From the NCBI GenBank assembly GCA_041483195.1, contig JBGPFC010000012.1, forward strand, positions 33,364 to 97,363: a DNA stretch of 64,000 nucleotides. The letters are read 5' to 3'. Positions within the stretch are counted from its first letter, which is position 1, and each line of letters opens with the position of its first letter. The position numbers and the translations under genes are program-made. Shown one piece after another: positions 12,099 through 52,487 of the stretch. This DNA comes from Candidatus Eiseniibacteriota bacterium. Lineage in GTDB: Bacteria; Eisenbacteria; RBG-16-71-46. The notes under the pieces are model-generated. The model made no database searches. It saw only the letters and a list, made by a program, of their open reading frames with translations, and was not told the origin of the DNA.

Positions 12099-13055
12099 TC
12101 AGCGGTACAGCACCTTGATGCGTCCCCAGGTGCTGGTCCGGGTCGGCGTCGAGCACAGCGGGCCGCTCGAGAAGTTCGGGTGCGCGACGTCCCAGAAAGT
12201 ATTCCCGTACTGCGTCGCCGTGCCGCAGAACACCAGGTCGTAGCCGGTCGGCACCGCGTTGAGAAACCCGCTCGTCGGCCACACGAGCGCCGTCATCGCG
12301 GTCGCGAGATTGCCCTGGGCTCCCGAGCCCCACTGCACGAAGTCGATGATCTGGCTCACCTCGGTGAGGCCGCTGCCGGCCCCCGTGACCGGGGTCGCCG
12401 AATTCGGCACGTAGAGCGCGATCGATCCGGCCGTCGGGAGGTCGCCGAGGCCGCCCATGAAGAGATTGGTCGCGGTGTTGGTGCCGGCCTCGTTGGTGTG
12501 AATGGTGACGCGTCCGCCGGTGAACACCGTGACGCTGTTGAGCGGGACGAACTGCACGGGGGCGCCGTTCACGCTGATGCGGTAGCGGCCGAGGTCGCCG
12601 GTGTCGCCGCCCATGTTGGTGATCTCGATGCGATCGAGGCCGCCCGCCTGGTTGTATTCGAGTTCGGTGATCCGAAAGTTCGAGACCGGGATGCCCGAGG
12701 CGCTGATCGTGAGCGATCCCGTCATGCCGGAGAACTCGTGCTGCACGCAGTAGTAGGGCACGCTGCCGGTCTGTGTGCTCTTCCAGCTGAACGCGTTCCC
12801 GCTCGTGAGCTGGAGGTTGGTCAGGAACAGCGAGCCCGCGCCGGGGTCGCTGGAGCCCGCGCCGCTCTCCACCGTGTGCCCGCCCCCGGTCCACACCCAC
12901 ACCACCTGATCGCCCTGGTTGAGCGCGATCGAGTTCGGAAGGAACGTAAAGGACCCGGTGGCGTTGATCCGCACCTGCCCGGCATGAGCGCCGCTCGCGA
13001 AGCTCGAGAGCAGGACGAGCGCCGCCATGAACACGAATAGTCGCGAACGTCGCAT
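12099..13055 (-). CDS. Secreted cupredoxin (type-1 copper) domain + lamin-tail-like domain protein with C-terminal TWG motif
   Basis: Signal AHA-G; HTV...YYCVQHEFSGM (His/Cys/His/Met ligands); RITELEY...DRIEITN...IIDFVQWG; ends STWGRIKVLYR. Confidence 0.75.
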   Translation of the reverse strand: MRRSRLFVFMAALVLLSSFASGAHAGQVRINATGSFTFLPNSIALNQGDQVVWVWTGGGHTVESGAGSSDPGAGSLFLTNLQLTSGNAFSWKSTQTGSVPYYCVQHEFSGMTGSLTISASGIPVSNFRITELEYNQAGGLDRIEITNMGGDTGDLGRYRISVNGAPVQFVPLNSVTVFTGGRVTIHTNEAGTNTATNLFMGGLGDLPTAGSIALYVPNSATPVTGAGSGLTEVSQIIDFVQWGSGAQGNLATAMTALVWPTSGFLNAVPTGYDLVFCGTATQYGNTFWDVAHPNFSSGPLCSTPTRTSTWGRIKVLYR

Positions 13056-24793: not shown

Positions 24794-26830
24794 ATGCACC
24801 GACCCGCCCACAGGATCGCTAAGTCCGCCCTCGGCGCGCTGCTTGCCGTCGGCCTGCTCTTCCCGCCTGCGGCACACGCCCAGGAACAGTGGGGCTACAA
24901 CGGGATGGAAGTGTGCGTCCGGCCGCTGTGCGCGGGGTTCAGCCCGCTCATCTGCCAGGACGGATTCGGTGGCGCGCTCATCGTGTGGGAGCGCAATCCG
25001 GGGCTGGTCAACCAGGACCTCTACGTGCAGCGGGTGCTGGCGAACGGAGTGATCGCTCCCGGATGGCCCGGGCGCGGCGTGCTCGCGGTGGGTGAATCTC
25101 ACGACCAGTACTCGGAGGCCATCGTGCCCGATAGTGCGGGCGGTGCGTTCGTCGCGTGGGTGGACTACCGCAGCTGGACCGCGAACGGTCTCGATATCTA
25201 CGCGCAACATGTCCGCGGTGATGGCTCGCTCGCCCCGGGCTGGCCAACGAACGGATTGCCGGTGGGGGCAGCACCGGGCGATCAGGATTGGGCGCGCATG
25301 CTGGCCGATGGCGCGGGCGGCGTGTTCATCGTGTGGGAAGACGCGCGCTCCGGGTTCAACAACACCGACGCTTACGCGCAGCACCTGAACGGCGACGGAA
25401 CCCGGGTCGCGGGCTGGCCGGAGGGCGGGCTCGCGGTGTGTACGGCGCCATTCGCCTCCTACGGGCCCCATCTCTGCGCGGATGGCCAGGGGGGATGCTT
25501 CATCGGGTGGTCGGACGGGCGCGACGTTTACGGAGGAGAAATCTACGCTCAGCGGGTCGGCTGGTCGGGGGATCTGGCGACGGGTTGGCCGGTGAACGGT
25601 CGACGGATCTTTTCGGGAGGTAGCGTCTACACCGCGCGCGGCGTGTGGGGCGTAGTCCCCGATGGCGGCGGAGGCGCCTACATCGGCTGGGGATCGAGCC
25701 ACGGCGCGACGGCCTACGACGACGACGTGTATGCGATCCGGATTCTCGCCGATGGATCGATCGCACCCGGGTGGCCCGCGAGTGGATTCCCCGTGGCGAC
25801 ATTCCCCGGCCAACAATTGCTCAACAGCGTCGCGGCCGACAGCACCGGCGGCGTTCTGCTCGGATGGTACAGCGGCATCGAACAGCCCAATACTGCGTAC
25901 GTGCAGCGGCTGCGGCCCGATGGCACCGTTACGCCCGGCTGGCCGGCCGCGAGCGTGCACGCCGGAGATGTCGTGGGTTTCCAGGGCGCGGTCTCGGTGG
26001 TGCCGGATGGGCTGGGTGGCACGTACGTGGCTTACTACTCCTCGGGAGGTAGCGGCTCGCACGACTTCATCCAGCACATCACGGCAACCGGTGCTCTCGC
26101 GCCGGGCTGGCCGACCGCGGCGATCCCGCTGGTGAGTCCCTGGACATCATCGGCCTACCAGCAGGATGCGTACTTCGGCGTTACCGCGGACGGAAGCGGC
26201 GGCGCGATCGTCGCGTGGAACGACACGCGCAACGGGATCTCGAACGAAATCTTCGCGCAGAAATACAGCGGGAGCGGTCCCACCGCGACGCTGGTCTCGC
26301 TCACCAGCGTCGAAGCGCTGCCCGATCGTGTCATCCTTGCGTGGCATCTCAGCGATGGCGAGACGCCCGACGCCGCGATCTATCGGCGAACCGAAGAGGA
26401 CGCGTGGTCCGCACTGGGACGCGCCGCGTTCGATGGCACCGGTCGCCTACAGTTTGAAGACCGCACCGTCGAAGCGGGAGAGCGGTATTCGTATCGGCTG
26501 GGCTGGCTCGAGTCCGGCACCGAGCAGTTCAGCGCCGAGACCTGGGTCGAGGTGCCCGCCGCGCTCGCGCTCACGCTCGAGGGCGCGCTCCCGAATCCCG
26601 CGGTGGGTGCGCTCAACGTCGCGTTCACACTCCCGCGATCCGGGCGCGCTTCGCTCGAGCTGCTCGATATCGCGGGCCGTCAGCTCGCCGAGCGTGAGGT
26701 GGGCGACCTCGGCGCGGGGCGGCACCTCGTTCGCCTGAATGAATCACGCCGAACGCCGCCCGGCGTCTACTGGCTCAAGCTCACTCAGTCGGAGCGCACG
26801 CTGGTCAAGCGCGCGGTCGTGATCCAGTAG
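24794..26830 (+). CDS. Secreted repeat (probable beta-propeller) protein with Ig-like linker and FlgD/T9SS-like CTD
   Basis: Signal AHA-Q; 8 DGxGGxxxxW...YAQ repeats, 7 followed by GWP; CTD PNPAVG...LLDIAGR...PGVYWLKL. Confidence 0.8.
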   Translation: MHRPAHRIAKSALGALLAVGLLFPPAAHAQEQWGYNGMEVCVRPLCAGFSPLICQDGFGGALIVWERNPGLVNQDLYVQRVLANGVIAPGWPGRGVLAVGESHDQYSEAIVPDSAGGAFVAWVDYRSWTANGLDIYAQHVRGDGSLAPGWPTNGLPVGAAPGDQDWARMLADGAGGVFIVWEDARSGFNNTDAYAQHLNGDGTRVAGWPEGGLAVCTAPFASYGPHLCADGQGGCFIGWSDGRDVYGGEIYAQRVGWSGDLATGWPVNGRRIFSGGSVYTARGVWGVVPDGGGGAYIGWGSSHGATAYDDDVYAIRILADGSIAPGWPASGFPVATFPGQQLLNSVAADSTGGVLLGWYSGIEQPNTAYVQRLRPDGTVTPGWPAASVHAGDVVGFQGAVSVVPDGLGGTYVAYYSSGGSGSHDFIQHITATGALAPGWPTAAIPLVSPWTSSAYQQDAYFGVTADGSGGAIVAWNDTRNGISNEIFAQKYSGSGPTATLVSLTSVEALPDRVILAWHLSDGETPDAAIYRRTEEDAWSALGRAAFDGTGRLQFEDRTVEAGERYSYRLGWLESGTEQFSAETWVEVPAALALTLEGALPNPAVGALNVAFTLPRSGRASLELLDIAGRQLAEREVGDLGAGRHLVRLNESRRTPPGVYWLKLTQSERTLVKRAVVIQ

Positions 26831-40786: not shown

Positions 40787-43603
40787 ATGCGTCGCATCTC
40801 GCTGTTCGTTGCCCTGGGAGTACTCGCGGCGGGTCTCGTGGCGGCACCCCGATACCTGAAGTCGCTCCCCGCCTCGACCCCCGCCTTCGTCCACTTCGAG
40901 AGCGGCCAGGTGCGCCCCGCCGCGCTCACGCCCTCCGGCGACCGCCTGCTCGTGGTGGACACGCCCGATGCGCACCTGCGCGTGTTCGACGTGACGGGGT
41001 TGAAGCCGCACAAGATCACGGACATCCCGGTGGGCCTCGAGCCGGTTTCGGTCCGGTGCCTCAGCGACAGCGAGGCCTGGGTGGTGAACAACGTCTCGGA
41101 CGACGTGAGCGTCGTGAACCTCAACACGCTTCACGTGCGCGCCGTCATTCGCGTCGGCGACGAGCCGAACGACGTCGTTTTCGCGAACGGCAAGGCCTAT
41201 GTCAGCGTTTCGCAGGAAGACGTGGTGAAGGTCTACGACACGACGACCCGGGCGCTGGTCGCGAGCATTCCGATCAACGGCCGCAAGCCGCGCACGCTCG
41301 CGAGGACGACCGACGGCACCAAGGTCTACGTCGCGGTGTTCCAGGGCGGCAACCGCACCACCGTGCTCTCGCCCACCAAGGTGCCGGTCGATTCGATGCC
41401 CGAAGACTTCGACATCCCGATGGACGGGGGCCTGCCGCCCCAGCCCAACAACGGCCTCATCGTCCAGAAGCAGGGCGTCAACTGGTACGACATGTACGGC
41501 ACGCTGTGGAGCTCGAAGGTGAAGTACAACCTGTACGAGGTGGACGTCGCCGAGATCAACACCACCACCGACGCCGTGACCCGCGGCTTCGGCGGCATGA
41601 GCAGCGTCAACTACGGGGTCGCGGTGAGCCCCACCGACGGCCGCATCGTGCTGACCGGCACCGAAGCCCGCAACATCCTGCGCTTCGAACCCCGGCTCAA
41701 CGGGTACCTGGTCGAGACCAACGTGTCGTTCGTGACGCAGGCGGGCGCGGTCTCGGTTCGCAAGCTCGACCCGCACATCGACTACGACGTGGTGCCCGGC
41801 ACCCAGGCCGAGGCCGACTCCGCGATCGGGATTCCGAGCGCCGTCACGTTCTCGAGCGACGGCCTGCGCGCATACGTCACGTCGTTCGCCACCGACAAGC
41901 TCGGCGTCATCAATCCGGGCGGCGGCGCGCTCTCGTCGGTGCTCGCGCGGGTGAAGACCGTGGCGGGCCCGACCGGGGTCGTCTGCGACGGCCCGCGCCA
42001 CCGCATCTACGTCGTGGGGCGCAATCACAACCAGCTGCAGACTTTCCAGAGCGACTCGCTCTACTCGATGAGCATCGTGGGCATCGGCTTCGACCCGACG
42101 CCCAACCCGATCGTGAACGGGCGGAAGTTCTTCTACGGCGGATTCACATCGGCCCACGGCGACCAGGCGTGCGCGACCTGCCACGTGTTCGGCGACATCG
42201 ACAACCTGGCGTGGGATCTCGGCGATCCGCTCGGCTCATACGTCGACCCGCCGAATCCCAATCCGCTCGGGCTCTCGGGGTTCCACCCGATGAAGGGCCC
42301 GATGGTGACTCAGTCGCTGCGCGGGCTCACCAACACCGAGCCGTTCCACTGGCGCGGCGACCGCGTGAATCTCGCGGCGTTCAACAACGCGTTCCTCTCG
42401 CTGCAGGGGCGCGAGGCGCCGCTCGCGGACAGCGAGATGACCGCGTTCAGCGCGTTCGTCATGCCGATGGTCTATCCGCCGAACCCCAACGAGAACCTCG
42501 ACCGCACCATGCCGGACGCGCCGCCCGGGCAGCCCAGCGCGCTGCGCGGGCAGGACTTCTTCATGAACGCGATCGTCGACGGCAGCGGCCACACCTGCAC
42601 GTCGTGCCACACGGCGGCGAGCTTCGGCCCGGGCACCGATCGCGTGATGGTGCCGAAGGCCCAGCTCGGCGAAGACCAGGACTTCAAGGTCCCGCAGCTG
42701 CGGAATCTCTACGAGAAGACCGGATTCCGCGACACGATCGGAGTGACCAACAAGCGCGGTTTCGGATTCGACCACGACGGATCGTCCGACAACCTCGTGG
42801 ACCTGATGAAGAACGTCCACGGACCGATGTTCGACTTCGGGTCGCCGGCCGCGGTGGCCGACGCGAACATCCGCGACCTCGAAGCGTTCCTGATGGCGTT
42901 CGACACCGGCATGGCGCCGGCGGTCGGCTATCAGCTCGGCTTCGATGGCACCAACAACTCCGACCCGACCGCGCTCTCGCGCGCGGACACGCTCCGGGGG
43001 CAGGCCGCGGCCGGCAACTGCGATCTCATCGCGAAGGGCCGAGTGAACGGGCAGGCGCGCGGCTGGGTGTACGAAGGCTCCGACCAGTGGAAGCCCGACA
43101 AGGTAGCGGAGAGCGACATCACCACCGCTGAGCTGATCGCGCTCGCCGGACTCGGCAGCGAGCTGACCGTGACCGGAGTGCCGACCGGGCTCGGATCGCG
43201 AATGGGCATCGACCGCGATTGCGATGGTTACCTCGACGGCGACGAGCGTGACGCGGGCAGCGACCCCGGCGGGCCGGCCTCGAACCCGACCAACGTCGAC
43301 GTCACGCCTCTGCCTGCGCGCGCCGAGTTCGCGCTGCGCGGCGTGCATCCCAATCCGTTCCGCTTCGGCACCGACGTGATGTTCACGCTCGGCCGCGCGA
43401 GCCGCGTGGATCTCGTGGTGTTCGACATCATGGGGCGCGAGGTGCGCTCGGTGGTGCGCGGCGAGTGGATGGCGGCGGGACCACAGACCCTGCGCTGGGA
43501 CGGCCGCGACGCGAGCGGCCGCGAGGCCGGCGCCGGCGTTTACTTCGTGAAGCTCCGGACCGAAGCCGCCAGTTGGACCCGCACCGTGGTACGCGTGAGG
43601 TAA
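40787..43603 (+). CDS. Secreted YncE/YVTN beta-propeller + di-heme cytochrome c (CcP/MauG-like) protein with FlgD/T9SS-like CTD (paralog 1)
   Basis: Signal; propeller repeats (IPVGLEPVSV, VGDEPNDV); CATCH and CTSCH; KGPMVTQSLRG; KVPQLRN; CTD PNPF...AGVYFVKL. Confidence 0.82.
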   Translation: MRRISLFVALGVLAAGLVAAPRYLKSLPASTPAFVHFESGQVRPAALTPSGDRLLVVDTPDAHLRVFDVTGLKPHKITDIPVGLEPVSVRCLSDSEAWVVNNVSDDVSVVNLNTLHVRAVIRVGDEPNDVVFANGKAYVSVSQEDVVKVYDTTTRALVASIPINGRKPRTLARTTDGTKVYVAVFQGGNRTTVLSPTKVPVDSMPEDFDIPMDGGLPPQPNNGLIVQKQGVNWYDMYGTLWSSKVKYNLYEVDVAEINTTTDAVTRGFGGMSSVNYGVAVSPTDGRIVLTGTEARNILRFEPRLNGYLVETNVSFVTQAGAVSVRKLDPHIDYDVVPGTQAEADSAIGIPSAVTFSSDGLRAYVTSFATDKLGVINPGGGALSSVLARVKTVAGPTGVVCDGPRHRIYVVGRNHNQLQTFQSDSLYSMSIVGIGFDPTPNPIVNGRKFFYGGFTSAHGDQACATCHVFGDIDNLAWDLGDPLGSYVDPPNPNPLGLSGFHPMKGPMVTQSLRGLTNTEPFHWRGDRVNLAAFNNAFLSLQGREAPLADSEMTAFSAFVMPMVYPPNPNENLDRTMPDAPPGQPSALRGQDFFMNAIVDGSGHTCTSCHTAASFGPGTDRVMVPKAQLGEDQDFKVPQLRNLYEKTGFRDTIGVTNKRGFGFDHDGSSDNLVDLMKNVHGPMFDFGSPAAVADANIRDLEAFLMAFDTGMAPAVGYQLGFDGTNNSDPTALSRADTLRGQAAAGNCDLIAKGRVNGQARGWVYEGSDQWKPDKVAESDITTAELIALAGLGSELTVTGVPTGLGSRMGIDRDCDGYLDGDERDAGSDPGGPASNPTNVDVTPLPARAEFALRGVHPNPFRFGTDVMFTLGRASRVDLVVFDIMGREVRSVVRGEWMAAGPQTLRWDGRDASGREAGAGVYFVKLRTEAASWTRTVVRVR

Positions 43604-43882: not shown

Positions 43883-46708
43883 ATGAAAACCCGGCCGCTC
43901 GCCATCACGCTCGTCGCGACATCCCTGCTTGCAGCGTCCGCCTCGATCGCGAGCGGACCCCCCATCAAGTTCGCGGAGCGTCAGCTCGCACCCGACATCG
44001 GATCGTCCCTTGTCGTAGGGGAGCTCGACGGCAATCCGGGCCCGGAGGTCGTCGGGGTCTCGGGCGGCAACGTCCTCGTTCTTCGCAATCTCGGCGGGCG
44101 CGCGTTCTCGTCTGTCCAATCCATCCCGATGGCGGGCGGCAGCGAGTTCCGGCTCGCGCTCCCGGACGTGGATGGCGACGGACGGCGCGATCTGGTGACG
44201 CTGCGTTCGTCACCTCCGGCGGTGGTGCTGCGCGCGAATCTCGGCGGGTTCAATTTCGCGCCGGCGCTGGAGTACGCGCTGCCCTCGAGCCCGCGCGCGC
44301 TCGCGACGGGTGATATGAACGGCGATTCACGCGATGACATCATCGCCTTCTGCCAGGACACGGCGGCGGTCTTCATGGGCCTCCCCGGAGGCAGTCTCGC
44401 GGGACCGACGCTCGTTCCCATCGGGCCCGGCGCATTCGACGTTCCCGCCCTCGCCGATCTCGACGGTGATACGAAGCTGGATCTGGTGCTGTTCGTCGGC
44501 GACTATCCGTCGTGGTCGCTGCAGTGGCGCCATGGCAACGGCGACGGCACGTTCGGCGCGCCGAACTCCATCCCGGGCACTGCCGATTTCACCCCGCACA
44601 TGGCAGCCATGGACTTCGACCTCGACGGTGATGCAGACATCATCGCGTCAACGAATACCGGCGTGATCTGGCTCGAGAACGACGGATCGGGAGCGTTCAC
44701 GAGACGCGCGCCACTGCCGTTCGACCTCCACACCACCGACCCCGCGCAGGCCAGGATCGGCGACGTGGATGGCGACGGGCGCCTCGATGTGGTCCTTGCC
44801 GAACGCACGTTCGGCATACAGAACAACCTGGTCGAGGTCGCGTACTCGGCGGCCGACAGCGCCGCTCATTGTCTCGAGCGCTGGCACGTTCCGTACGAGC
44901 CGACCGGCCTGGCGCTCGCGGATCTGGACGGAGATGGCCGCCTCGACGTCGCCACCTCGTGCACGACCAGCTCGGACAACCCCTACTACTTTTCGGGTGG
45001 TCCTTCGACCGCCATCCTCTGGAATGACGCTCACGGCGGTTTGCTCGGGCGATTGGAGGCGCGGCTTCAATTTCCCTATTTCAATTCCTCGTCCGAGAGC
45101 GCGCTGCTCGCGCTGAGGCGGGCGGCAGACACTCCCCCCGATCTCGTGGCGTCCACGGATCAGCGTGCGCGCCTGCTCAGAAATGTGAGCGATGCAATGT
45201 TCGCGGCGCCCGAGAGCATCGGCGTCGGGCACCCGCTCGCGGCGGCCGACCTCGACGGCGACGGGGCCGACGACTTGGTCCTCACACGCTCCGACTCGGC
45301 GTGGGTGTTCTTGCGCGACACCACCACCCTGGGCTTCGCAGCACCCGGACCGCTTCTCGCCGGGGGCGTCTCGCTGGGCCTCGGCGACCTGAATGGCGAT
45401 GGACGAACCGACCTCGTGACGGAAGGCGCAGCCGGCTCGATCGCCTATCGTCCCGGCGACGGCTCGGGTGGATTCGGGGCGAACCTTCCGTTCGGCGCGG
45501 CGCTGCAGGTTCCGCACGGGGCCGTTCTCATCCGGGACCTCGATGGGGATGGGCGCACCGAGATCGTGTTCGCCGAAGCCTCGGCGGTCACGAGCGGCGA
45601 CTCCCCGAGTCATGTGCTGCGCGCCGTGCTGCATGTGCTCCACAACGACGGGGCGGGGCACTTCGCATCCGACGAGATCGACTCGCTGCGTCTGACGTAC
45701 GCGTCTGGCTCGAGCTACTCCAATTTCGGCAGCGCGCTCACCGTCGCTGACGTCGACGGGGACGGCGATCGAGACGTGGTGCTCTCGATGGGGAATGGCG
45801 GCGTCAGCCTCGGCTGGTTCGGCGCGTTCCTCAATGACGGCGCTGGCCATTTCCACGCCGCTGGGCCCGCGCAGTACGGCGGCAACCCCGGGGGCGATCT
45901 CGCCTCTGCCGATCTCAACGGCGACGCTCTGGCGGACGTGATCATCGCCCAGAGCGACGGCCTCGATTTCGACCTCGGCGTATTCCCGGCGAGCGGAGGT
46001 GGAGCGTTCGGGACGATAAGCTACTTCATCGGCGCCGATGCCATGACGCGCTGCATCACCGCCGACTTCGACGGCGACGCCCGGACCGATGTGGCGGTGC
46101 TCGGTTACAACGACAACGACATCGTCATGCTGCGCAACGCGACAGAGTACGCGCCCATTCCGACGCCCGCGCTCGCCTCGCTGGTGAGCGCGGCACTCGC
46201 GGGCGGCATTGCGCGGATTGAGTGGTGGAGTCCGGACGGCGCCGCGTTCAAGGCCACGCTGCAGCGCGCGCTGGACGATGGCGCGTGGATGCCGATCGCG
46301 ACGATTGTCGCCGACGGCGCAGGGCACGTCCGGTACGAAGATGCCGGTTTGCTCCCCGGGCACCGTTACGGCTATCGGCTCTGGGTGCGGGACGAGACCG
46401 GCGCGCACGCGCTCGGCGAGGCATGGCTCGGCGTGCCTGCCCGCGCGTTCTCGATCCAGCCGCCCGTGCCCAATCCCTCGACGGGCCGGCCGGCATTCGT
46501 AGTCTCGCTGCCCGATGCGGGGGAGGGCGCGCTCGACATCATCGACGTGAGCGGACGCCTCGTGCGGCGCGCGACGTTCCGTTCGAGCGCCGCCGGGCAG
46601 GAACGTGTCTCGTTCGAGCGCGAGGGCACGCTCGCGCCCGGGCTCTACTTCGCGCGCGCGCGGATGGGGCGCGAGACGACGCTCGCGCGGTTCGTGGTGA
46701 TCCGCTAG
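43883..46708 (+). CDS. Secreted FG-GAP/VCBS repeat protein with Ig-like linker and FlgD/T9SS-like CTD
   Basis: GGAGG RBS; signal; about a dozen D(L/V/F)DGDGxxD repeats; CTD PNPSTG...IDVSGR...PGLYFAR. Confidence 0.85.
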   Translation: MKTRPLAITLVATSLLAASASIASGPPIKFAERQLAPDIGSSLVVGELDGNPGPEVVGVSGGNVLVLRNLGGRAFSSVQSIPMAGGSEFRLALPDVDGDGRRDLVTLRSSPPAVVLRANLGGFNFAPALEYALPSSPRALATGDMNGDSRDDIIAFCQDTAAVFMGLPGGSLAGPTLVPIGPGAFDVPALADLDGDTKLDLVLFVGDYPSWSLQWRHGNGDGTFGAPNSIPGTADFTPHMAAMDFDLDGDADIIASTNTGVIWLENDGSGAFTRRAPLPFDLHTTDPAQARIGDVDGDGRLDVVLAERTFGIQNNLVEVAYSAADSAAHCLERWHVPYEPTGLALADLDGDGRLDVATSCTTSSDNPYYFSGGPSTAILWNDAHGGLLGRLEARLQFPYFNSSSESALLALRRAADTPPDLVASTDQRARLLRNVSDAMFAAPESIGVGHPLAAADLDGDGADDLVLTRSDSAWVFLRDTTTLGFAAPGPLLAGGVSLGLGDLNGDGRTDLVTEGAAGSIAYRPGDGSGGFGANLPFGAALQVPHGAVLIRDLDGDGRTEIVFAEASAVTSGDSPSHVLRAVLHVLHNDGAGHFASDEIDSLRLTYASGSSYSNFGSALTVADVDGDGDRDVVLSMGNGGVSLGWFGAFLNDGAGHFHAAGPAQYGGNPGGDLASADLNGDALADVIIAQSDGLDFDLGVFPASGGGAFGTISYFIGADAMTRCITADFDGDARTDVAVLGYNDNDIVMLRNATEYAPIPTPALASLVSAALAGGIARIEWWSPDGAAFKATLQRALDDGAWMPIATIVADGAGHVRYEDAGLLPGHRYGYRLWVRDETGAHALGEAWLGVPARAFSIQPPVPNPSTGRPAFVVSLPDAGEGALDIIDVSGRLVRRATFRSSAAGQERVSFEREGTLAPGLYFARARMGRETTLARFVVIR

Positions 46709-47608: not shown

Positions 47609-50416
47609 GTGAGGTCCACCATCCGCCGCATCGCCACATTCCTCGCCCTCGTCGCGCTGATCGCCGGACTCGCCGCGGTCCCGCGCCGGCTCGGCTCGCG
47701 CGCCGCGATCGCGCCCGACTTCGTCCACTTCGAGAGCGCGCACATTCATCCCGCGGTGCTGACCCCGAACGGGGATCGCCTGCTGGTGGTGAACACGCCC
47801 GACAACCGGCTGAGCGTGTTCGACGTGACCGGCGCGCGCCCGGTGCGGATCGCGGAGATCGAGGTGGGGATGGAGCCGGTGTCGGTGGCGTGCCGCAGCG
47901 ACAGCGAGGCGTGGGTGGTGAACACGCTCTCCGACGACGTGAGCGTGGTGAACCTGAACACACTGCACGCGCGGGCGACGCTGCGGGTGGGGGACGAGCC
48001 GGGGGACGTGGTGTTCGCGAACGGGCTGGCCTACGTGAGCGTCTCGCAGTACGACCAGGTGCGGGTGTACGACCCGGCGAGCCTCACGCGGGTGGCGACG
48101 ATCGCGATCGAGGCGCGGATGCCGCGGGCGCTGGCGGTGAACGGGAACGGGACGCGGGTGTACGCGGCGGGCTTGTTCGCGGGCAATCGCACCACGGTGC
48201 TTCCGGAATCCGTCGTCGGCAACGCGCTGCCGCCCCCCAATCCGCCGATGGTGTTCGGACTGCCGCCGGCGCCCGGGGTCGGCCTGATCGTGAAGCAGCT
48301 CGCGAACGGCGACTGGGTGGATGAGACCGGCCGCGCCTGGAACGCGCACGTGCCCTACTCGGTGCTGGACGCGGACGTGAGCGAGATCAACACCGCGACC
48401 AACACGGTGAGCCGCACCTTCGGCGACATCGGCACGGTGAACTTCGCGCTGGCGGTGGAGCCGGTCGGCGGCACGGTGGCGGCGACCGCGACCGAGGCGC
48501 GCAACTTCACGCGCTTCGCACCCAACGTGCGCGGCCACCTGGTGGACACGCGTGCGGCGTTCATCACGCCCGGCGGGAGCGTCACCGTCGCCAATCTCAA
48601 CCCGTACGTGGACTACACCGTGACGCCGGGGCCGGCCGGCCCGCGCAACTCGGCGATCGGCATTCCCACCGGGATCGCGTGGTATCGCGGCGGGAGCCGG
48701 GTGCTCGTGACCTCGCTCGCGAGCCACCGCATCGTCGCGCTCGACCCGGCCCTGCCGGGGCGATCGGTCGCGCGCGCGGCCACCGTGGCGGGCCCGACCG
48801 GGGTGGTCGCCGACGACGCGCGCGGGCGCGTCTACGTGGTGGGCCGCTTCCACAACCAGCTCCAGACGCTCGACGCCGGCGACCTTCATCAGCTCGGACT
48901 CACCGGCATCGGTTTCGATCCCACCCCGGACGCGATCGTGAACGGCCGCAAGTTCTTCTACGGCGGGTTCACATCGGGGCACGGCGATCAGGCGTGCGCG
49001 ACCTGTCACGTGTTCGGCGACTTCGACGATCTCGCGTGGGATCTCGGCAATCCGGAGGGCACGCTGCAGCCGGTCGATCTCACCGGCCAGGGCAATCCGC
49101 TGCTCCAGAGCGCGGTCCATCCCATGAAGGGCCCGATGGTGACGCAGAGCCTGCGCGGTCTGCCGAATACCGGCCAGCTCCACTGGCGCGCCGATCGCGC
49201 GAACCTCGACGCGTTCGACGAGGCGTTCGTGAGCCTGCTGGGCCGCGCGAGCCCGCTGCCCGACAGCGAGATGGCCGCGCTCGACGACTTCGTGCTGGCG
49301 CTGGTGCATCCGCCCAACCCGAATCTCTACCTCGACCGCACGCTGCCGGGGGATCCGGTACCGTCGGACGTGCCGAGCGCGAAGCGCGGGCTGCAGTTCT
49401 TCATGAACGTCGCCGTCGATCAGTTCATTCCATGCGCCGGTTGTCACCGCGTCACGGGCGGCGCGCCGGGGACGAACGAGCAGATCATCGATCGCTTCGT
49501 GCTGCAGGCGGCGCAGGACCTCAAGGTGCCGCAGCTGCGAAATCTCTACCGCAAGACCGGCTTCGTGCGCCGGCCCGGCGCGCGCAGCAAGCGCGGCTTC
49601 GGCTTCACGCACAACGGATCGGTGGACGACCTCTTCGACTTCCTTCAGTTTCCGGGCTTCCGTTTCCCGCCGAACCCCGATCCGATCCGTCGCGATCTCG
49701 AGCAGTTCCTGCTCGACTTCGACACCGGCATGGCGCCCGCGGTCGGGGCGCAGGTCACGTTCACCGGCGCCAACGATGACGACCCCGCGACGGTCGCCCG
49801 GCTCGACACGCTGATCTCGCAGGCCCAGGCGGGCGGCTGCGAGGTGATCGCGAAGGGCCGCGTGAACGGCGAGCCGCGCGGATGGCTCTACGCGGGCGCG
49901 GGCAGATGGCGGCCCGATCGCCGGGCCGAGAGCGACACCACGACCGCCTTGCTGCGCGCGCTCGGCGGACCGGGCAGCGAGATCACCATGACGGGCGTGC
50001 CGTTCGGGAGCGGAGCGCGCATGGCCATCGATCGCGACCGCGATGGCTGGCGCGATGGCGACGAGCTCGCGGCCGGCAGCGATCCGGGCGATCCCGCCTC
50101 GACGCCCGCGAGCGCGACCCCGGTCCTTCCGCCCGAGGGCCTCACGCTGCGGAGCATCCGGCCCAATCCATTCCGCGATGCGGTCGAGGTGGCGTTCAAC
50201 CTCGGCCTCGCGAGCCGCGTGGACCTCGCGGTGTACGACATCATGGGGCGCGAGGTCACGGTGGTCGCGCGCGGCGCGTCACTCGGCGCCGGTCCGCAGA
50301 GCCTCGGCTGGGATGGCCGCGACGCGAGAGGGCGCTCGATGGGTGCGGGGGTTTACTTCCTGCGGCTCCGCACCGGCATCGGCGGCGTGACCCGGGCGGT
50401 GGTGCGGGTGAGATGA
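47609..50416 (+). CDS. Secreted beta-propeller + di-heme cytochrome c protein with FlgD/T9SS-like CTD (paralog 2)
   Basis: Collinear with 40787..43603 (FVHFES, NGRKFFYGGFTS.HGDQACATCH, KGPMVTQSLRG); second heme CAGCH. Confidence 0.82.
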   Translation: MRSTIRRIATFLALVALIAGLAAVPRRLGSRAAIAPDFVHFESAHIHPAVLTPNGDRLLVVNTPDNRLSVFDVTGARPVRIAEIEVGMEPVSVACRSDSEAWVVNTLSDDVSVVNLNTLHARATLRVGDEPGDVVFANGLAYVSVSQYDQVRVYDPASLTRVATIAIEARMPRALAVNGNGTRVYAAGLFAGNRTTVLPESVVGNALPPPNPPMVFGLPPAPGVGLIVKQLANGDWVDETGRAWNAHVPYSVLDADVSEINTATNTVSRTFGDIGTVNFALAVEPVGGTVAATATEARNFTRFAPNVRGHLVDTRAAFITPGGSVTVANLNPYVDYTVTPGPAGPRNSAIGIPTGIAWYRGGSRVLVTSLASHRIVALDPALPGRSVARAATVAGPTGVVADDARGRVYVVGRFHNQLQTLDAGDLHQLGLTGIGFDPTPDAIVNGRKFFYGGFTSGHGDQACATCHVFGDFDDLAWDLGNPEGTLQPVDLTGQGNPLLQSAVHPMKGPMVTQSLRGLPNTGQLHWRADRANLDAFDEAFVSLLGRASPLPDSEMAALDDFVLALVHPPNPNLYLDRTLPGDPVPSDVPSAKRGLQFFMNVAVDQFIPCAGCHRVTGGAPGTNEQIIDRFVLQAAQDLKVPQLRNLYRKTGFVRRPGARSKRGFGFTHNGSVDDLFDFLQFPGFRFPPNPDPIRRDLEQFLLDFDTGMAPAVGAQVTFTGANDDDPATVARLDTLISQAQAGGCEVIAKGRVNGEPRGWLYAGAGRWRPDRRAESDTTTALLRALGGPGSEITMTGVPFGSGARMAIDRDRDGWRDGDELAAGSDPGDPASTPASATPVLPPEGLTLRSIRPNPFRDAVEVAFNLGLASRVDLAVYDIMGREVTVVARGASLGAGPQSLGWDGRDARGRSMGAGVYFLRLRTGIGGVTRAVVRVR

Positions 50417-50684: not shown

Positions 50685-52487
50685 ATGCGCGTGCGCAATT
50701 TCGTTCCCGTGAAGATGCAGATCAGAATTCGACGCGGCTCGCTGCTCCTGTCGGTCGCAGGTCTCGTCGTTGCCATGCTCGCATGGCCGCGCACCGGCGC
50801 GGCACAGTGCGGCGGAACCTGCGCGGGCTGTTGCAACGTCTATCTGCCCAACTGCACGATTCCGGGCGTCATCGTCGGAAGTCCCAGCGGCCAGGCGCGC
50901 CCCTATACCGTGACGCTGCGCAATTCGCAGCACAACCCGCCATCCAACGTCACGGCACTCTGGCTCGGATACACCTCGGAATTCTCCTGCCAGAACTACA
51001 GCACCCCGCGACCCTACACGTCTCACGGGGGCATCAAGCTCGACTGCACCCATCCAAGCTGCGGAATCATCGACTGGCCATACAACGAGATCAGTCAGAG
51101 CTCGGGCACGGGCACCTTCTACGCCCAGTTCGGAGGCAGCAAGACGCAGCAGCTGGGCCTCGCGGTTCAGGTCGGCCTCAGTTGCGGCCCCGGATACATC
51201 GACCTCGAGTGCCCCGAGGCGCGCAGCACCGATTTCGACGCCGACGGCGATACCGACCAGGACGACAAGGTCTACATCGGCCAGGAGATCGCATCCGGCA
51301 GCCCGCACCGCTGGTGCAACCTGGACACCGACGACGCCTCGAACACCGTGATCGACGCCTCAGACTACATGGTGATCGTGAACGAGATGCTCAGGGCCGC
51401 GCTGGACACGCTCTGCACGTGCCCCGACAACCCGGGCGATGAAGATCCGGATTGCGCGCCGGGTCCGACCCGCGCCGCCGACAATTCGCCGCCGGACACC
51501 ACCACGCTCGGCATCGCGTCGACGGATGGCGGATGCGTGACGCTGCGCTGGAAGTCGCCGGGCGACGACTACGTCAGCTCGCAGAAGCTGGGCGTCCCGA
51601 AGGAATTCGATCTTCGCTATTCGTCCAGCACCATCACGTCGTCGAATTTCAACAGTGCGACGCGCTACACGGCGACGCCCACCCCCGGCATCGTGGGCGC
51701 GACCCACACGGTCACGGTGGATGCGAGCGCGCTCGGCGCCCGCTACTGGGCGATCAAGACCAAGGACTGGGCCGGCAACCTGTCTTCGATGAGCGCGGTG
51801 CTGGACGCGAACCCGCCGTCGGCCACGGTATCGGATCTCGCGGTGTGCGCGACCTACAAGAACTGCATCCTGGTCGGCTGGACCTCGCCTAACGCGCTCA
51901 ACGTCGAGGTGCGGTACGCGACATCGGCGATCACGAACTGCAGCTACAGCTCGGCCAACTCCGCGGGCACGATGTCGGCAGACCCCGGGCACCTGCAGCA
52001 GCTCTACATCAGCGGGCTCACCCAGGGGCACACCTACTACTTCGCGGTCAAGTCACAGGACCCCAACTACAACTGGTCCGCGATCAGCAACGATCCGTCG
52101 GGCACGACGCCCACCTACGGCTCGAGCTGCAACTACAATCTCTTGTGCAGCGGGGACGGCTTCCGCGCGAAGCCGGCGCCCTCCGAGCCGGTGGCCGATC
52201 TGCGGTACGACCTGTCGCGACCCGTGCCGAATCCGGCCGGCGATCGGAGTCTGATCGGCTATTCGATTCCGGCCGGTCTCATGGGCGAGACGCTCGACCT
52301 CGCGATCTTCGATGTCGCAGGTCGCCGCATCACGACCCTCGCGCACGGAACGGCGCAACCGGGCCGCTTCGAAGCGCAATGGGACCTGCGCGGAGAAGGC
52401 GGACAGCGGGCGCGGCCGGGCATGTTCTTCGTCCGGCTGCGGGTGGGAGCGTCGCAACTGAACCGCACCATCGTGGTCGGGCAGTAG
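50685..52487 (+). CDS. Secreted Cys-rich protein with EF-hand/dockerin-like loops, two FN3-like domains and FlgD/T9SS-like CTD
   Basis: GGAG RBS; QCGGTCAGCC; DFDADGDTDQDD; LRWKSPGDD..FDLRYS; YYFAVKSQD; PNPAGD..IFDVAGR..PGMFFVRL. Confidence 0.75.
   Translation: MRVRNFVPVKMQIRIRRGSLLLSVAGLVVAMLAWPRTGAAQCGGTCAGCCNVYLPNCTIPGVIVGSPSGQARPYTVTLRNSQHNPPSNVTALWLGYTSEFSCQNYSTPRPYTSHGGIKLDCTHPSCGIIDWPYNEISQSSGTGTFYAQFGGSKTQQLGLAVQVGLSCGPGYIDLECPEARSTDFDADGDTDQDDKVYIGQEIASGSPHRWCNLDTDDASNTVIDASDYMVIVNEMLRAALDTLCTCPDNPGDEDPDCAPGPTRAADNSPPDTTTLGIASTDGGCVTLRWKSPGDDYVSSQKLGVPKEFDLRYSSSTITSSNFNSATRYTATPTPGIVGATHTVTVDASALGARYWAIKTKDWAGNLSSMSAVLDANPPSATVSDLAVCATYKNCILVGWTSPNALNVEVRYATSAITNCSYSSANSAGTMSADPGHLQQLYISGLTQGHTYYFAVKSQDPNYNWSAISNDPSGTTPTYGSSCNYNLLCSGDGFRAKPAPSEPVADLRYDLSRPVPNPAGDRSLIGYSIPAGLMGETLDLAIFDVAGRRITTLAHGTAQPGRFEAQWDLRGEGGQRARPGMFFVRLRVGASQLNRTIVVGQ

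Follow-up and report, generated by a model that had tools for sequence, protein, structure and literature searches.

C-terminal sorting signals are the main predictor of bacterial surface display, and the new signals described in the past have each led to an enzyme (sortase, exosortase, rhombosortase, myxosortase, and PorU). Here, we analyze a short tail at the C-terminus of an exported protein encoded by a stretch of 64,000 nucleotides from Candidatus (Ca.) Eiseniibacteriota bacterium (contig JBGPFC010000012.1 of assembly GCA_041483195.1), which is referred to as the window. An earlier note on the window had proposed that this tail is probably an undescribed protein-sorting signal. Our analysis indicates that the tail, designated the WG tag, is probably modular and read by envelope machinery. 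Based on sequence comparisons and predicted structures, the ~17-residue terminus would act as a sorting or anchoring tag on many unrelated Sec-exported proteins, both in this organism and in allied candidate phyla rich in type IX secretion systems (T9SS), with records bearing the titles Eisenbacteria, Krumholzibacteriota, Latescibacterota, and 'Fibrobacter'.

The WG tag shares several properties with the signals of the LPXTG, PEP-CTERM, GlyGly-CTERM, and MYXO-CTERM class. It is located at the extreme C-terminus of many otherwise unrelated signal-peptide proteins per genome and has a near-invariant signature, homologues of its carriers bear other sorting signals, and a candidate processing enzyme is encoded beside the targets in cases that look dedicated. 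Unlike these signals, the WG tag contains neither a transmembrane segment nor a terminal cluster of arginines, and its invariant residues are at its very end. No exosortase-type partner was identified for it. Since the tag lacks a transmembrane helix, it cannot be gripped and cleaved by a sortase residing in or bound to the membrane, and it is therefore not LPXTG- or PEP-CTERM-like.

The T9SS type A C-terminal domain (CTD; TIGR04183, Por_Secre_tail) resembles the WG tag in occurring in the same organisms, on homologous passengers, and in having a basic hydrophobic C-terminus with a conserved lysine. It differs in being a folded β-sandwich of ~70–100 residues, whereas the WG tag is linear and, with 17 residues, too short to be a folded T9SS CTD. 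In addition, the WG tag is all but missing from a Bacteroidota-type control phylum (2 of 101 genomes, single matches). According to PMC10994853, the translocon recognizes the CTD by its folded shape rather than by conserved residues, and the CTD contains a nearly invariant lysine, important for function, near its C-terminus. The tail was not matched by TIGR04183, a CTD model of ~72 positions, and AlphaFold2 (AF2) predicted no domain at this place. The 'basic terminal domain' of Fibrobacter was considered as a counterpart of the tail and rejected, as it corresponds to a T9SS CTD of 43–90 residues in PMC3079729 and PMC6851124. The T9SS is present in tag-bearing genomes: the genome holding the window (G000; G, C, and L numbers are our handles for genomes, contigs, and loci) encodes SprA and PorU and has 112 matches to TIGR04183, and CTD matches were found in all 81 genomes of the phylum of genome G160 (at least 29 in each). 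With more than 100 T9SS cargo proteins, the T9SS secretome of G000 is very large in relation to its 4.2 Mb.

Other C-terminal motifs of envelope proteins differ from the tail. The β-signal of outer membrane proteins, which are substrates of the β-barrel assembly machinery, has a C-terminal aromatic residue, usually Phe. The WG tail ends in Arg; the PorV-like outer membrane protein of G000 ends in GYRF. The Lpp-type murein attachment motif has a C-terminal Lys after Y-R, whereas 103 of 120 orthologues of the window protein end in YR and only three in YRK.

Recurrence of the tail on exported proteins

In the 4.17-Mb genome G000, six-frame translation revealed 34 open reading frames (ORFs) of at least 60 residues with WG.[ILVM]K within the 20 C-terminal residues. 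The longer motif WG.[ILVM]K..[YF]R was found 33 times in ORFs of at least 50 residues; 31 of these occurrences were exactly C-terminal and the remaining two were followed by two and 12 residues, respectively. The back-translated DNA pattern, TGGGGNNNNNTNAARNNNNNNTAYMGNTRR, had 31 matches in G000, compared to none for the reversed pattern. The carriers are 174 to 327 residues long. A signal peptide was scored in 31 of the 33 tail-bearing ORFs by a crude heuristic of our own (not SignalP), and the two negative ORFs had hydrophobic N-terminal stretches when inspected by eye. Using the same heuristic and rough gene calls, 18 of 20 tail genes of a crude G000 gene set were signal-peptide positive versus 642 of 2231 other genes (29%; Fisher p = 2e-8). 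Together, the exact C-terminal position, the absence of matches to the reversed pattern, and the enrichment in signal peptides indicate that the tail did not arise by chance. The earlier note had made its proposal dependent on a link to exported proteins, and the 31 signal-peptide-positive carriers establish this link.

Irregular copies were also observed. On contig C20 of G000, ~450 bp downstream of L019 (C20:34505-35395), a 160-residue frame ends in TWGQVKARYR plus 12 extra residues; no other copy in this genome is clearly non-terminal, and the frame may represent a tandem paralogue in decay. L227 (G243:C28) and L228 (G030:C19) each contain a further complete WG...YR-stop tail, located in another frame 76–85 bp past the real stop codon. 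These out-of-frame tails follow two unrelated carrier genes and may be remnants of a tail duplication or of a frameshifted ancestor. Three tandem paralogues of a Cys-rich family, with 'LNLSW.DC' after the signal peptide, are encoded at G000:C11:88555-91441 (L229). This family has six tailed members in G000, and the third copy at L229 (88555-89550) is devoid of the WG tail.

Modularity and absence from family collections

Matches to Pfam and NCBIfam assigned diverse passenger domains to the 33 carriers of G000: cupredoxin with a lamin-tail domain (LTD), F5/8 type C (discoidin), DUF7450, phosphoesterase, LTD alone, and choice-of-anchor V (one carrier, 48.6 bits for a cut-off of 42). Further matches involved GEVED, below its cut-off, and NHL propellers with a relationship to ScyF, a PEP-CTERM protein. 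Pfam was blank for 22 of the 33 carriers. BLAST comparisons of 22 carriers detected no WG paralogue at E < 1e-8 for 11 of them, whereas four had passenger paralogues (34–55% identity) ending in a T9SS CTD instead. The motif is thus not confined to orthologues of the window protein, the second ground on which the earlier proposal could have failed, since it is borne by unrelated domains and BLAST detects no WG paralogue for approximately half of the 22 carriers. As judged from these alignments, homologous passenger domains end in the tag in some proteins and in the T9SS CTD in others.

No NCBIfam (release 20) or Pfam model matched the tail of the window protein or of 32 other carriers, and 11 isolated 35-residue tails scanned at E ≤ 10 gave no match to NCBIfam, Pfam, or TIGR04183. 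Full-text literature searches retrieved no paper describing the tail, and none that was relevant for PorU2 or for the motif strings. The term 'undescribed' is consistent with these results: the tag is uncatalogued, as far as these searches reach, and it is real and widespread.

Eight criteria for small C-terminal sorting signals are listed in a preprint (Haft et al., bioRxiv 10.1101/2023.06.07.544157), and the WG tag conforms to six of them (1, 2, 3, 6, 7, and 8) and departs from criteria 4 and 5. Concerning position (criterion 1), 31 of the 33 motif occurrences are exactly C-terminal. Recurrence (2) amounts to 31–34 occurrences in G000 and up to 49 per genome in relatives. Signature residues (3) are present, at the end of the tag and not at its start. 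The proportion of carriers with a signal peptide (6) is 31 of 33, versus 29% of other genes, by the heuristic rather than by SignalP. Carrier pairs alike in the tag alone (7) are found, as Pfam domains differ and 11 of 22 carriers have no WG paralogue. Homologues with another signal (8) are the CTD paralogues of 4 of 22 carriers, to which the choice-of-anchor V and ScyF matches are added. In place of a strongly hydrophobic segment of transmembrane length (4), the tag has nine residues after the linker, including K and R, and in place of a terminal cluster of two to five basic residues (5), it ends in one R, with a K at position −5.

The tail-bearing protein of the window

The 318-residue protein of the window begins with MRRSRLFVFMAALVLLSSFASGAHA, followed by GQ, and ends in CSTPTRTSTWGRIKVLYR; its C-terminal end LCSTPTRTSTWGRIKVLYR is followed by the stop codon. 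Its features are as follows.

12099..13055, minus strand: whole ORF, 318 residues, exported cupredoxin and LTD protein with a C-terminal WG tag.
12981..13055, minus strand: predicted Sec signal peptide, residues 1–25 (MRRSRLFVFMAALVLLSSFASGAHA), from sequence inspection, the signal-peptide heuristic, and an N-terminal helix in the AF2 model.
12705..12959, minus strand: cupredoxin domain, residues 33–117 (Pfam PF00127, 33.2 bits, cut-off 21.2).
12414..12680, minus strand: LTD-like β domain, residues 126–214 (Pfam PF00932, 28.4 bits, under the cut-off of 34.3).
12153..12413, minus strand: third folded region, residues 215–301, extending to the invariant Cys301 (AF2 predicted local distance difference test score (pLDDT) of ~90–96 up to residue 300).
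12126..12152, minus strand: linker half of the tag, S302–T309 (STPTRTST), plus W310, fitting the conserved stretch P-[TV]-P-[ATV]-[RE]-x-x-[ST].
12102..12128, minus strand: terminal core of the tag, W310–R318 (WGRIKVLYR-COOH), defined by conservation in orthologues and strict C-terminal placement genome-wide.
12099..12101, minus strand: stop codon directly after the tag.

The tag thus extends from S302 to R318 (12102-12152), and the terminus, STPTRTSTWGRIKVLYR, is immediately followed by the stop codon. A signal-peptide protein ending in STWGRIKVLYR is therefore encoded as the earlier note had read it, the positions given there comprising the stop codon and the tail. In the cupredoxin domain, H60, C103, and H106 were invariant among 63 orthologues and M111 nearly so, which fits the ligand set of type-1 copper. 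The LTD-like region was predicted to form β strands with pLDDT above 90. C277 and C301 were invariant among the orthologues, and T303 and P304, in the linker half, nearly so. The pLDDT of this half was below 56, and below 50 for residues 305–307.

The neighbors of the gene had been said to carry a CTD. This applies only in a loose sense: six matches to the T9SS type A CTD or to FlgD_ig occur in the 64-kb window, the nearest being ~11 kb away, and the immediate neighbors resemble housekeeping genes, as judged from their sequences. The six matches are located at 597-821, 26591-26821, 43343-43591, 46469-46699, 50159-50395, and 52290-52427.

Conservation and predicted structure of the tag

The end of 103 of 120 homologues of the window protein conformed to WG.[ILVMF]K..[YF][RK], and most of the others had one residue after YR. 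In 63 orthologues (38–63% identity), W310, G311, K314, and C301 were invariant, and Y317 and R318 were at least 90% conserved. The DNA matches of the tail vary at third codon positions. Since W, G, and K are invariant down to 38% identity while third codon positions vary, comparison of these sequences indicates that the tag is under strong purifying selection. A logo based on the 31 tails of G000 and 126 tails from a scan of a genome collection (see below) gave the ~17-residue consensus P-[TV]-P-[ATV]-[RE]-x-x-[ST]-W-G-x-[ILV]-K-x-[LIM]-Y-R-COOH, in which conservation extends to [ST] at −10 and to P at −15. Conservation is limited to the 17 residues of the C-terminus.

AF2 models of two unrelated carriers (pLDDT of 90.5 and 85.3) displayed a fold that stops before the tag. 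In both, the linker had a pLDDT below 55 and the last eight residues formed a detached helix with a pLDDT below 56. According to these models, the tag is located at a free C-terminus, outside the folded passenger and after a flexible linker.

Distribution of the tag

The tail pattern was detected in all 41 relatives of G000 (5–46 matches each) and in 141 of 151 genomes sampled from its phylum (0–49 each), with a single match to the reversed control pattern in the whole sample. These two tallies include the unpublished genome G026 as one row, on which no claim depends. In the phylum of G160, 74 of 81 genomes were matched (0–39 each), whereas in the T9SS-rich control phylum, that of a Bacteroidales-titled genome, the pattern was found once in each of 2 of 101 genomes, one of these matches lacking a true stop codon after it. 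Among genomes with the title Ca. Eisenbacteria, five had 14–36 matches each, and genomes titled Krumholzibacteri-, Latescibacterota, and Fibrobacter had 14–26 matches each.

A collection of species representatives was scanned with a codon-restricted DNA pattern. At least 131 rows were obtained, and ~128 of the listed ones seemed genuine. Among the 80 titled rows of the matches listed, the named ones were mostly Ca. Eisenbacteria, followed by Krumholzibacteriota, Latescibacterota, and Fibrobacter(aceae). The lineages named in the earlier note were thus recovered in the case of Eisenbacteria, Krumholzibacteria, and Latescibacteria, whereas no Poribacteria title appeared among these 80 rows. Genomes titled Limnocylindria and Verrucomicrobiia had 31 and 27 matches, respectively. 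These two titles may be wrong, because the PorU-like proteins of both genomes resemble that of G000. Two zero-match genomes, G168 and G204, encode arrays with variant tail ends (SMMD, NLYE, and KQF; for example SWGAIKSMMD). The strict pattern therefore undercounts the tag, and zero-hit genomes are unfit as negatives for phylogenetic profiling. Three WG-tailed signal-peptide proteins (L219–L221) were found on contigs of 44–53% GC in G244, a 1.3-Mb genome titled Kerfeldbacteria, a name from the candidate phyla radiation (CPR).

A PorU-like peptidase as candidate enzyme

Genomes with one or few strict tail matches exposed a conserved operon:

L176:4924-15026 (G181); also L177, L196–L198, L222, L223, L225, L226, and L231–L250: dockerin/cohesin-fold/PorU-like operon with one to five cohesin-fold proteins.

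The operon encodes, in this order, a small protein with a dockerin motif, three to four signal-peptide proteins of ~180–215 residues ending in [ST]WGAIK..., and a protein of ~1370 residues combining Peptidase_C25 and FlgD_ig. The C25 gene is followed by an AnmK-like gene, then by SpoIID and GH3. The C25 protein (PF01364, E = 6e-52; CTD of the FlgD_ig type) scored 93–154 bits against the PorU model NF033707, for a cut-off of 420, whereas canonical PorU proteins encoded elsewhere in the operon genomes scored 537–558 bits and that of G000, whose gene is followed by a PorV-like gene, scored 461 bits. The candidate is therefore a paralogue and not PorU itself. H910 and C947, which we presume by analogy with known enzymes to be the catalytic His/Cys pair of C25 peptidases, were invariant in 11 sequences, and the paralogue is predicted to be catalytically intact.

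To examine the association independently of the tail, the upstream flank of the paralogue was inspected in 20 further genomes of the phylum of G160, chosen by their PorU-like match alone. One to five small ORFs with [STN]WGx[IV]K tails were found directly upstream, on the same strand, in 18 of the 20 flanks; the two misses were a flank at a contig end and G240. The same layout was seen at nine loci picked via their WG matches. In G000, the orthologue of the paralogue (C11:80734-85665) is 3.9 kb from two tandem WG genes, a layout common to G243; in both genomes, peptidyl-prolyl isomerase genes on the other strand are located in between. A WG match was 17–18 kb from the paralogue in five related genomes, which, being kin, count as one observation. 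The paralogue was present in all 81 genomes of the phylum of G160, whereas no full-length orthologue was detected in 41 genomes of the control phylum, in which the best match was partial (133 bits). The earlier note knew of no characterised machinery; from these comparisons, a candidate can now be named, and the PorU paralogue may, tentatively, be the reader of the tag.

The small proteins of the operon were modeled by AF2 as β-sandwiches, for which the ~30 top Foldseek matches in the PDB were nearly all cohesins (E of 1e-5 to 1e-3, TMt ~0.6, identity of 8–16%); the assignment concerns the predicted fold alone, and Pfam gave no match. Comparison of the array family A3 with the six-member family A4 of G000 by hhalign gave 96.7%, over only 67 N-terminal columns including the signal peptide. 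The association of single cohesin-fold modules bearing a WG tail with a dockerin-motif protein recalls the anchoring scaffoldins of cellulosomes, which have the same layout of surface anchor and docking partner. An example is ScaE of Ruminococcus flavefaciens (PDB 2zf9), a cohesin with an LPXTG sortase signal. The differences are that the hosts are diderm here, the tag is another one, and the enzyme belongs to another class. The predicted folds suggest that the operon is involved in cohesin–dockerin surface display in T9SS-bearing diderms.

Two additional PorU-related genes were noted. An ORF of 1620 residues at G000:C4:98005-102864, the third PorU-related ORF of this genome, scored 87.9 bits against NF033707 and has its own CTD. 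On contig C60 of G193 (L224), a further C25/PorU-related paralogue (A2 profile, E = 9e-65) directly follows two WG-tailed genes and two genes for CTD proteins.

Other partners were considered and rejected. The neighborhoods of the 33 carriers in G000 offered no convincing partner, as the families that recurred there were generic (T9SS cargo, Ser/Thr kinases, TPR, PD40, aminotransferases, and two retropepsin-like proteases). Clustering with T9SS cargo was suggested by 15 of 20 and by 13 of 20 regions inspected, yet a permutation test in G000 showed no enrichment; this test was crude, since CTDs were missing from the set used and genes could be overlapped by random placements. A Tricorn-like S41/PDZ protease adjoins the arrays of G181 and G194, but is not kept in other copies of the operon.

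Alternative explanations

The main rival explanation, which we consider unlikely, is that the tail is a self-sufficient anchor requiring no machinery. A cationic amphipathic segment, with a W/L/L/Y face flanked by K and R, would insert into the membrane interface or bind lipopolysaccharide or phospholipid head groups, thereby tethering exported proteins such as the cupredoxin to the membrane surface. Known analogues are the membrane-targeting sequence of MinD and the C-terminal amphipathic helices of PBP5 and PBP6, Sec-exported enzymes in which a short cationic membrane anchor follows a linker. The tail resembles the latter in being a short, cationic, and amphipathic C-terminal segment after a linker, and the detached helix predicted for its last eight residues in two unrelated carriers is consistent with this function. 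The helical hydrophobic moment of the tails was 0.449, compared to 0.362 ± 0.013 in shuffled sequences, and their mean net charge was +2.3 over the last 10 residues. A membrane tether would suit an electron-carrier cupredoxin, most WG genes have no conserved adjoining partner gene, and the CPR-titled genome has three carriers without T9SS parts. However, the moment calculated for a β-strand was equally far above shuffled sequences (0.488 versus 0.354). As both moments exceed those of shuffles, a helix is not established for the tail, and the pLDDT of the predicted helix is below 56. Nine to ten residues are short for a stable in-plane anchor. The anchors of PBP5 and PBP6 are longer and conserved in pattern alone, whereas five residues of the tail (W, G, K, Y, and R) are fixed, at an exact distance from the C-terminus. 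This placement, exactly C-terminal in 31 of 33 cases, is stricter than in usual amphipathic anchors and suggests a protein reader. The anchor would also leave unaccounted for the conservation of P-[TV]-P-x-[RE] and the peptidase operon seen in 18 of 20 genomes.

It is rather improbable that the tail is a minimal export signal of the ordinary T9SS, mimicking the last strand and the near-terminal lysine of the type A CTD and handled by SprA, PorV, and the canonical PorU, with no need for a dedicated paralogue. All tested tag-bearing lineages are rich in T9SS cargo, passenger families are common to CTD and WG proteins, the CTDs of G000 end in two hydrophobic residues and R, much like the tail, and the near-terminal lysine of CTDs is the almost invariant one described in PMC10994853. 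The same source has the translocon read the shape of the CTD, which is beyond a 17-residue peptide. Furthermore, TIGR04183 was blank on the tails, WG genes do not cluster with cargo genes, and the T9SS-rich control phylum is nearly tag-free.

Still less probable is a function unrelated to sorting, in which the tail would serve in turnover, being recognized as a ligand or as a degron by a PDZ protease of the periplasm (Tricorn-like or an S41-family Ctp), or in wall tethering, by an Lpp-like attachment to peptidoglycan. A Tricorn-like S41 and PDZ protease adjoins the WG arrays of G181 and G194 and is 4.5 kb from one carrier in G000, strict dependence on a free C-terminus is typical of PDZ ligands, and SpoIID-, AnmK-, and GH3-like murein genes follow the operon. 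The Y-R(-K) end also recalls Braun's lipoprotein, which ends in YRK, as do the three orthologues of the window protein. Against this, the Tricorn-like gene is replaced by other genes in the operon copies at L223 and L225, and the terminal residue is Arg, whereas PDZ ligands usually have a hydrophobic end and Lpp a Lys. A degron on ~30 unrelated proteins, kept across phyla, would be unusual, and homologous passengers elsewhere bear true surface-sorting signals.

Finally, that the tail is the last element of one C-terminal domain inherited by descent, without separate function, is hardly credible, since the passenger folds are unrelated, the tail is unpacked in AF2 models, and conservation is confined to 17 residues, even if the Cys found 15–20 residues upstream and the similar P-T-P of many carriers could hint at a shared small module.

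Proposed role of the tag

If the tag is read by envelope machinery, the passenger would be exported by Sec and would fold in the periplasm, leaving the tail exposed. A dedicated envelope factor would then read the exposed tail and fix the final place of the protein on or in the cell envelope. The leading candidate for this factor is the second PorU-family C25 cysteine peptidase, itself equipped with a T9SS CTD. Its action would be analogous to that of PorU, with cleavage in the linker and transfer of the passenger to a surface anchor. The role itself, export versus anchoring, can only be inferred from the sequences. It is conceivable, at a similarly tentative level as for the reader, that a second sortase system, affiliated with the T9SS, is made up of the WG tail and the PorU-like C25 paralogue. 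In such a system, the paralogue would recognize and cleave a linear 'type C' signal of 17 residues in order to fix non-CTD proteins at the surface of Eisenbacteria- and Latescibacteria-type diderms, including single-cohesin anchors that recruit dockerins.

Several observations weigh against a tag read by envelope machinery or against the paralogue as its reader. Since all genomes of the phylum of G160 have the paralogue, its presence does not discriminate there, so that co-distribution is based on about three phyla. The operon involves a single passenger family, the cohesin-fold proteins, whose tails often have no terminal YR, and could reflect a partnership specific to this family rather than a general relation between tag and enzyme. 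Most WG genes of G158, G159, G160, and G245 are not on the contig of the PorU-like gene, and in G000 two oppositely oriented peptidyl-prolyl isomerase genes separate this gene from the nearest WG genes. The WG genes of G000 are not enriched near T9SS cargo genes in the crude test. No PorU-like protein and no CTD match was detected in G244, the carriers of which are either a bin contamination or a true exception, the tag working without T9SS. The crossing of the outer membrane by a protein lacking a CTD is left without explanation, and the cupredoxin of the window protein would more naturally be periplasmic than surface-exposed.

Implications

The tag is a new architectural variant of the C-terminal sorting signal, now with an enzyme candidate, and the PorU-paralogue lead makes the question of the machinery directly testable. 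In several uncultured phyla frequently found in soils, sediments, and sludge, it marks ~10–50 proteins of each genome. Current annotation models miss it, and its linear architecture without a membrane span fits no known mechanism. A simple model of the tag would improve the annotation of thousands of 'hypothetical' exported proteins. If the proposed system is confirmed, the tag would be the first sorting signal known in bacteria that consists of a linear peptide and lacks a transmembrane helix, and it would provide the basis of cohesin–dockerin surface display in Gram-negative candidate phyla.

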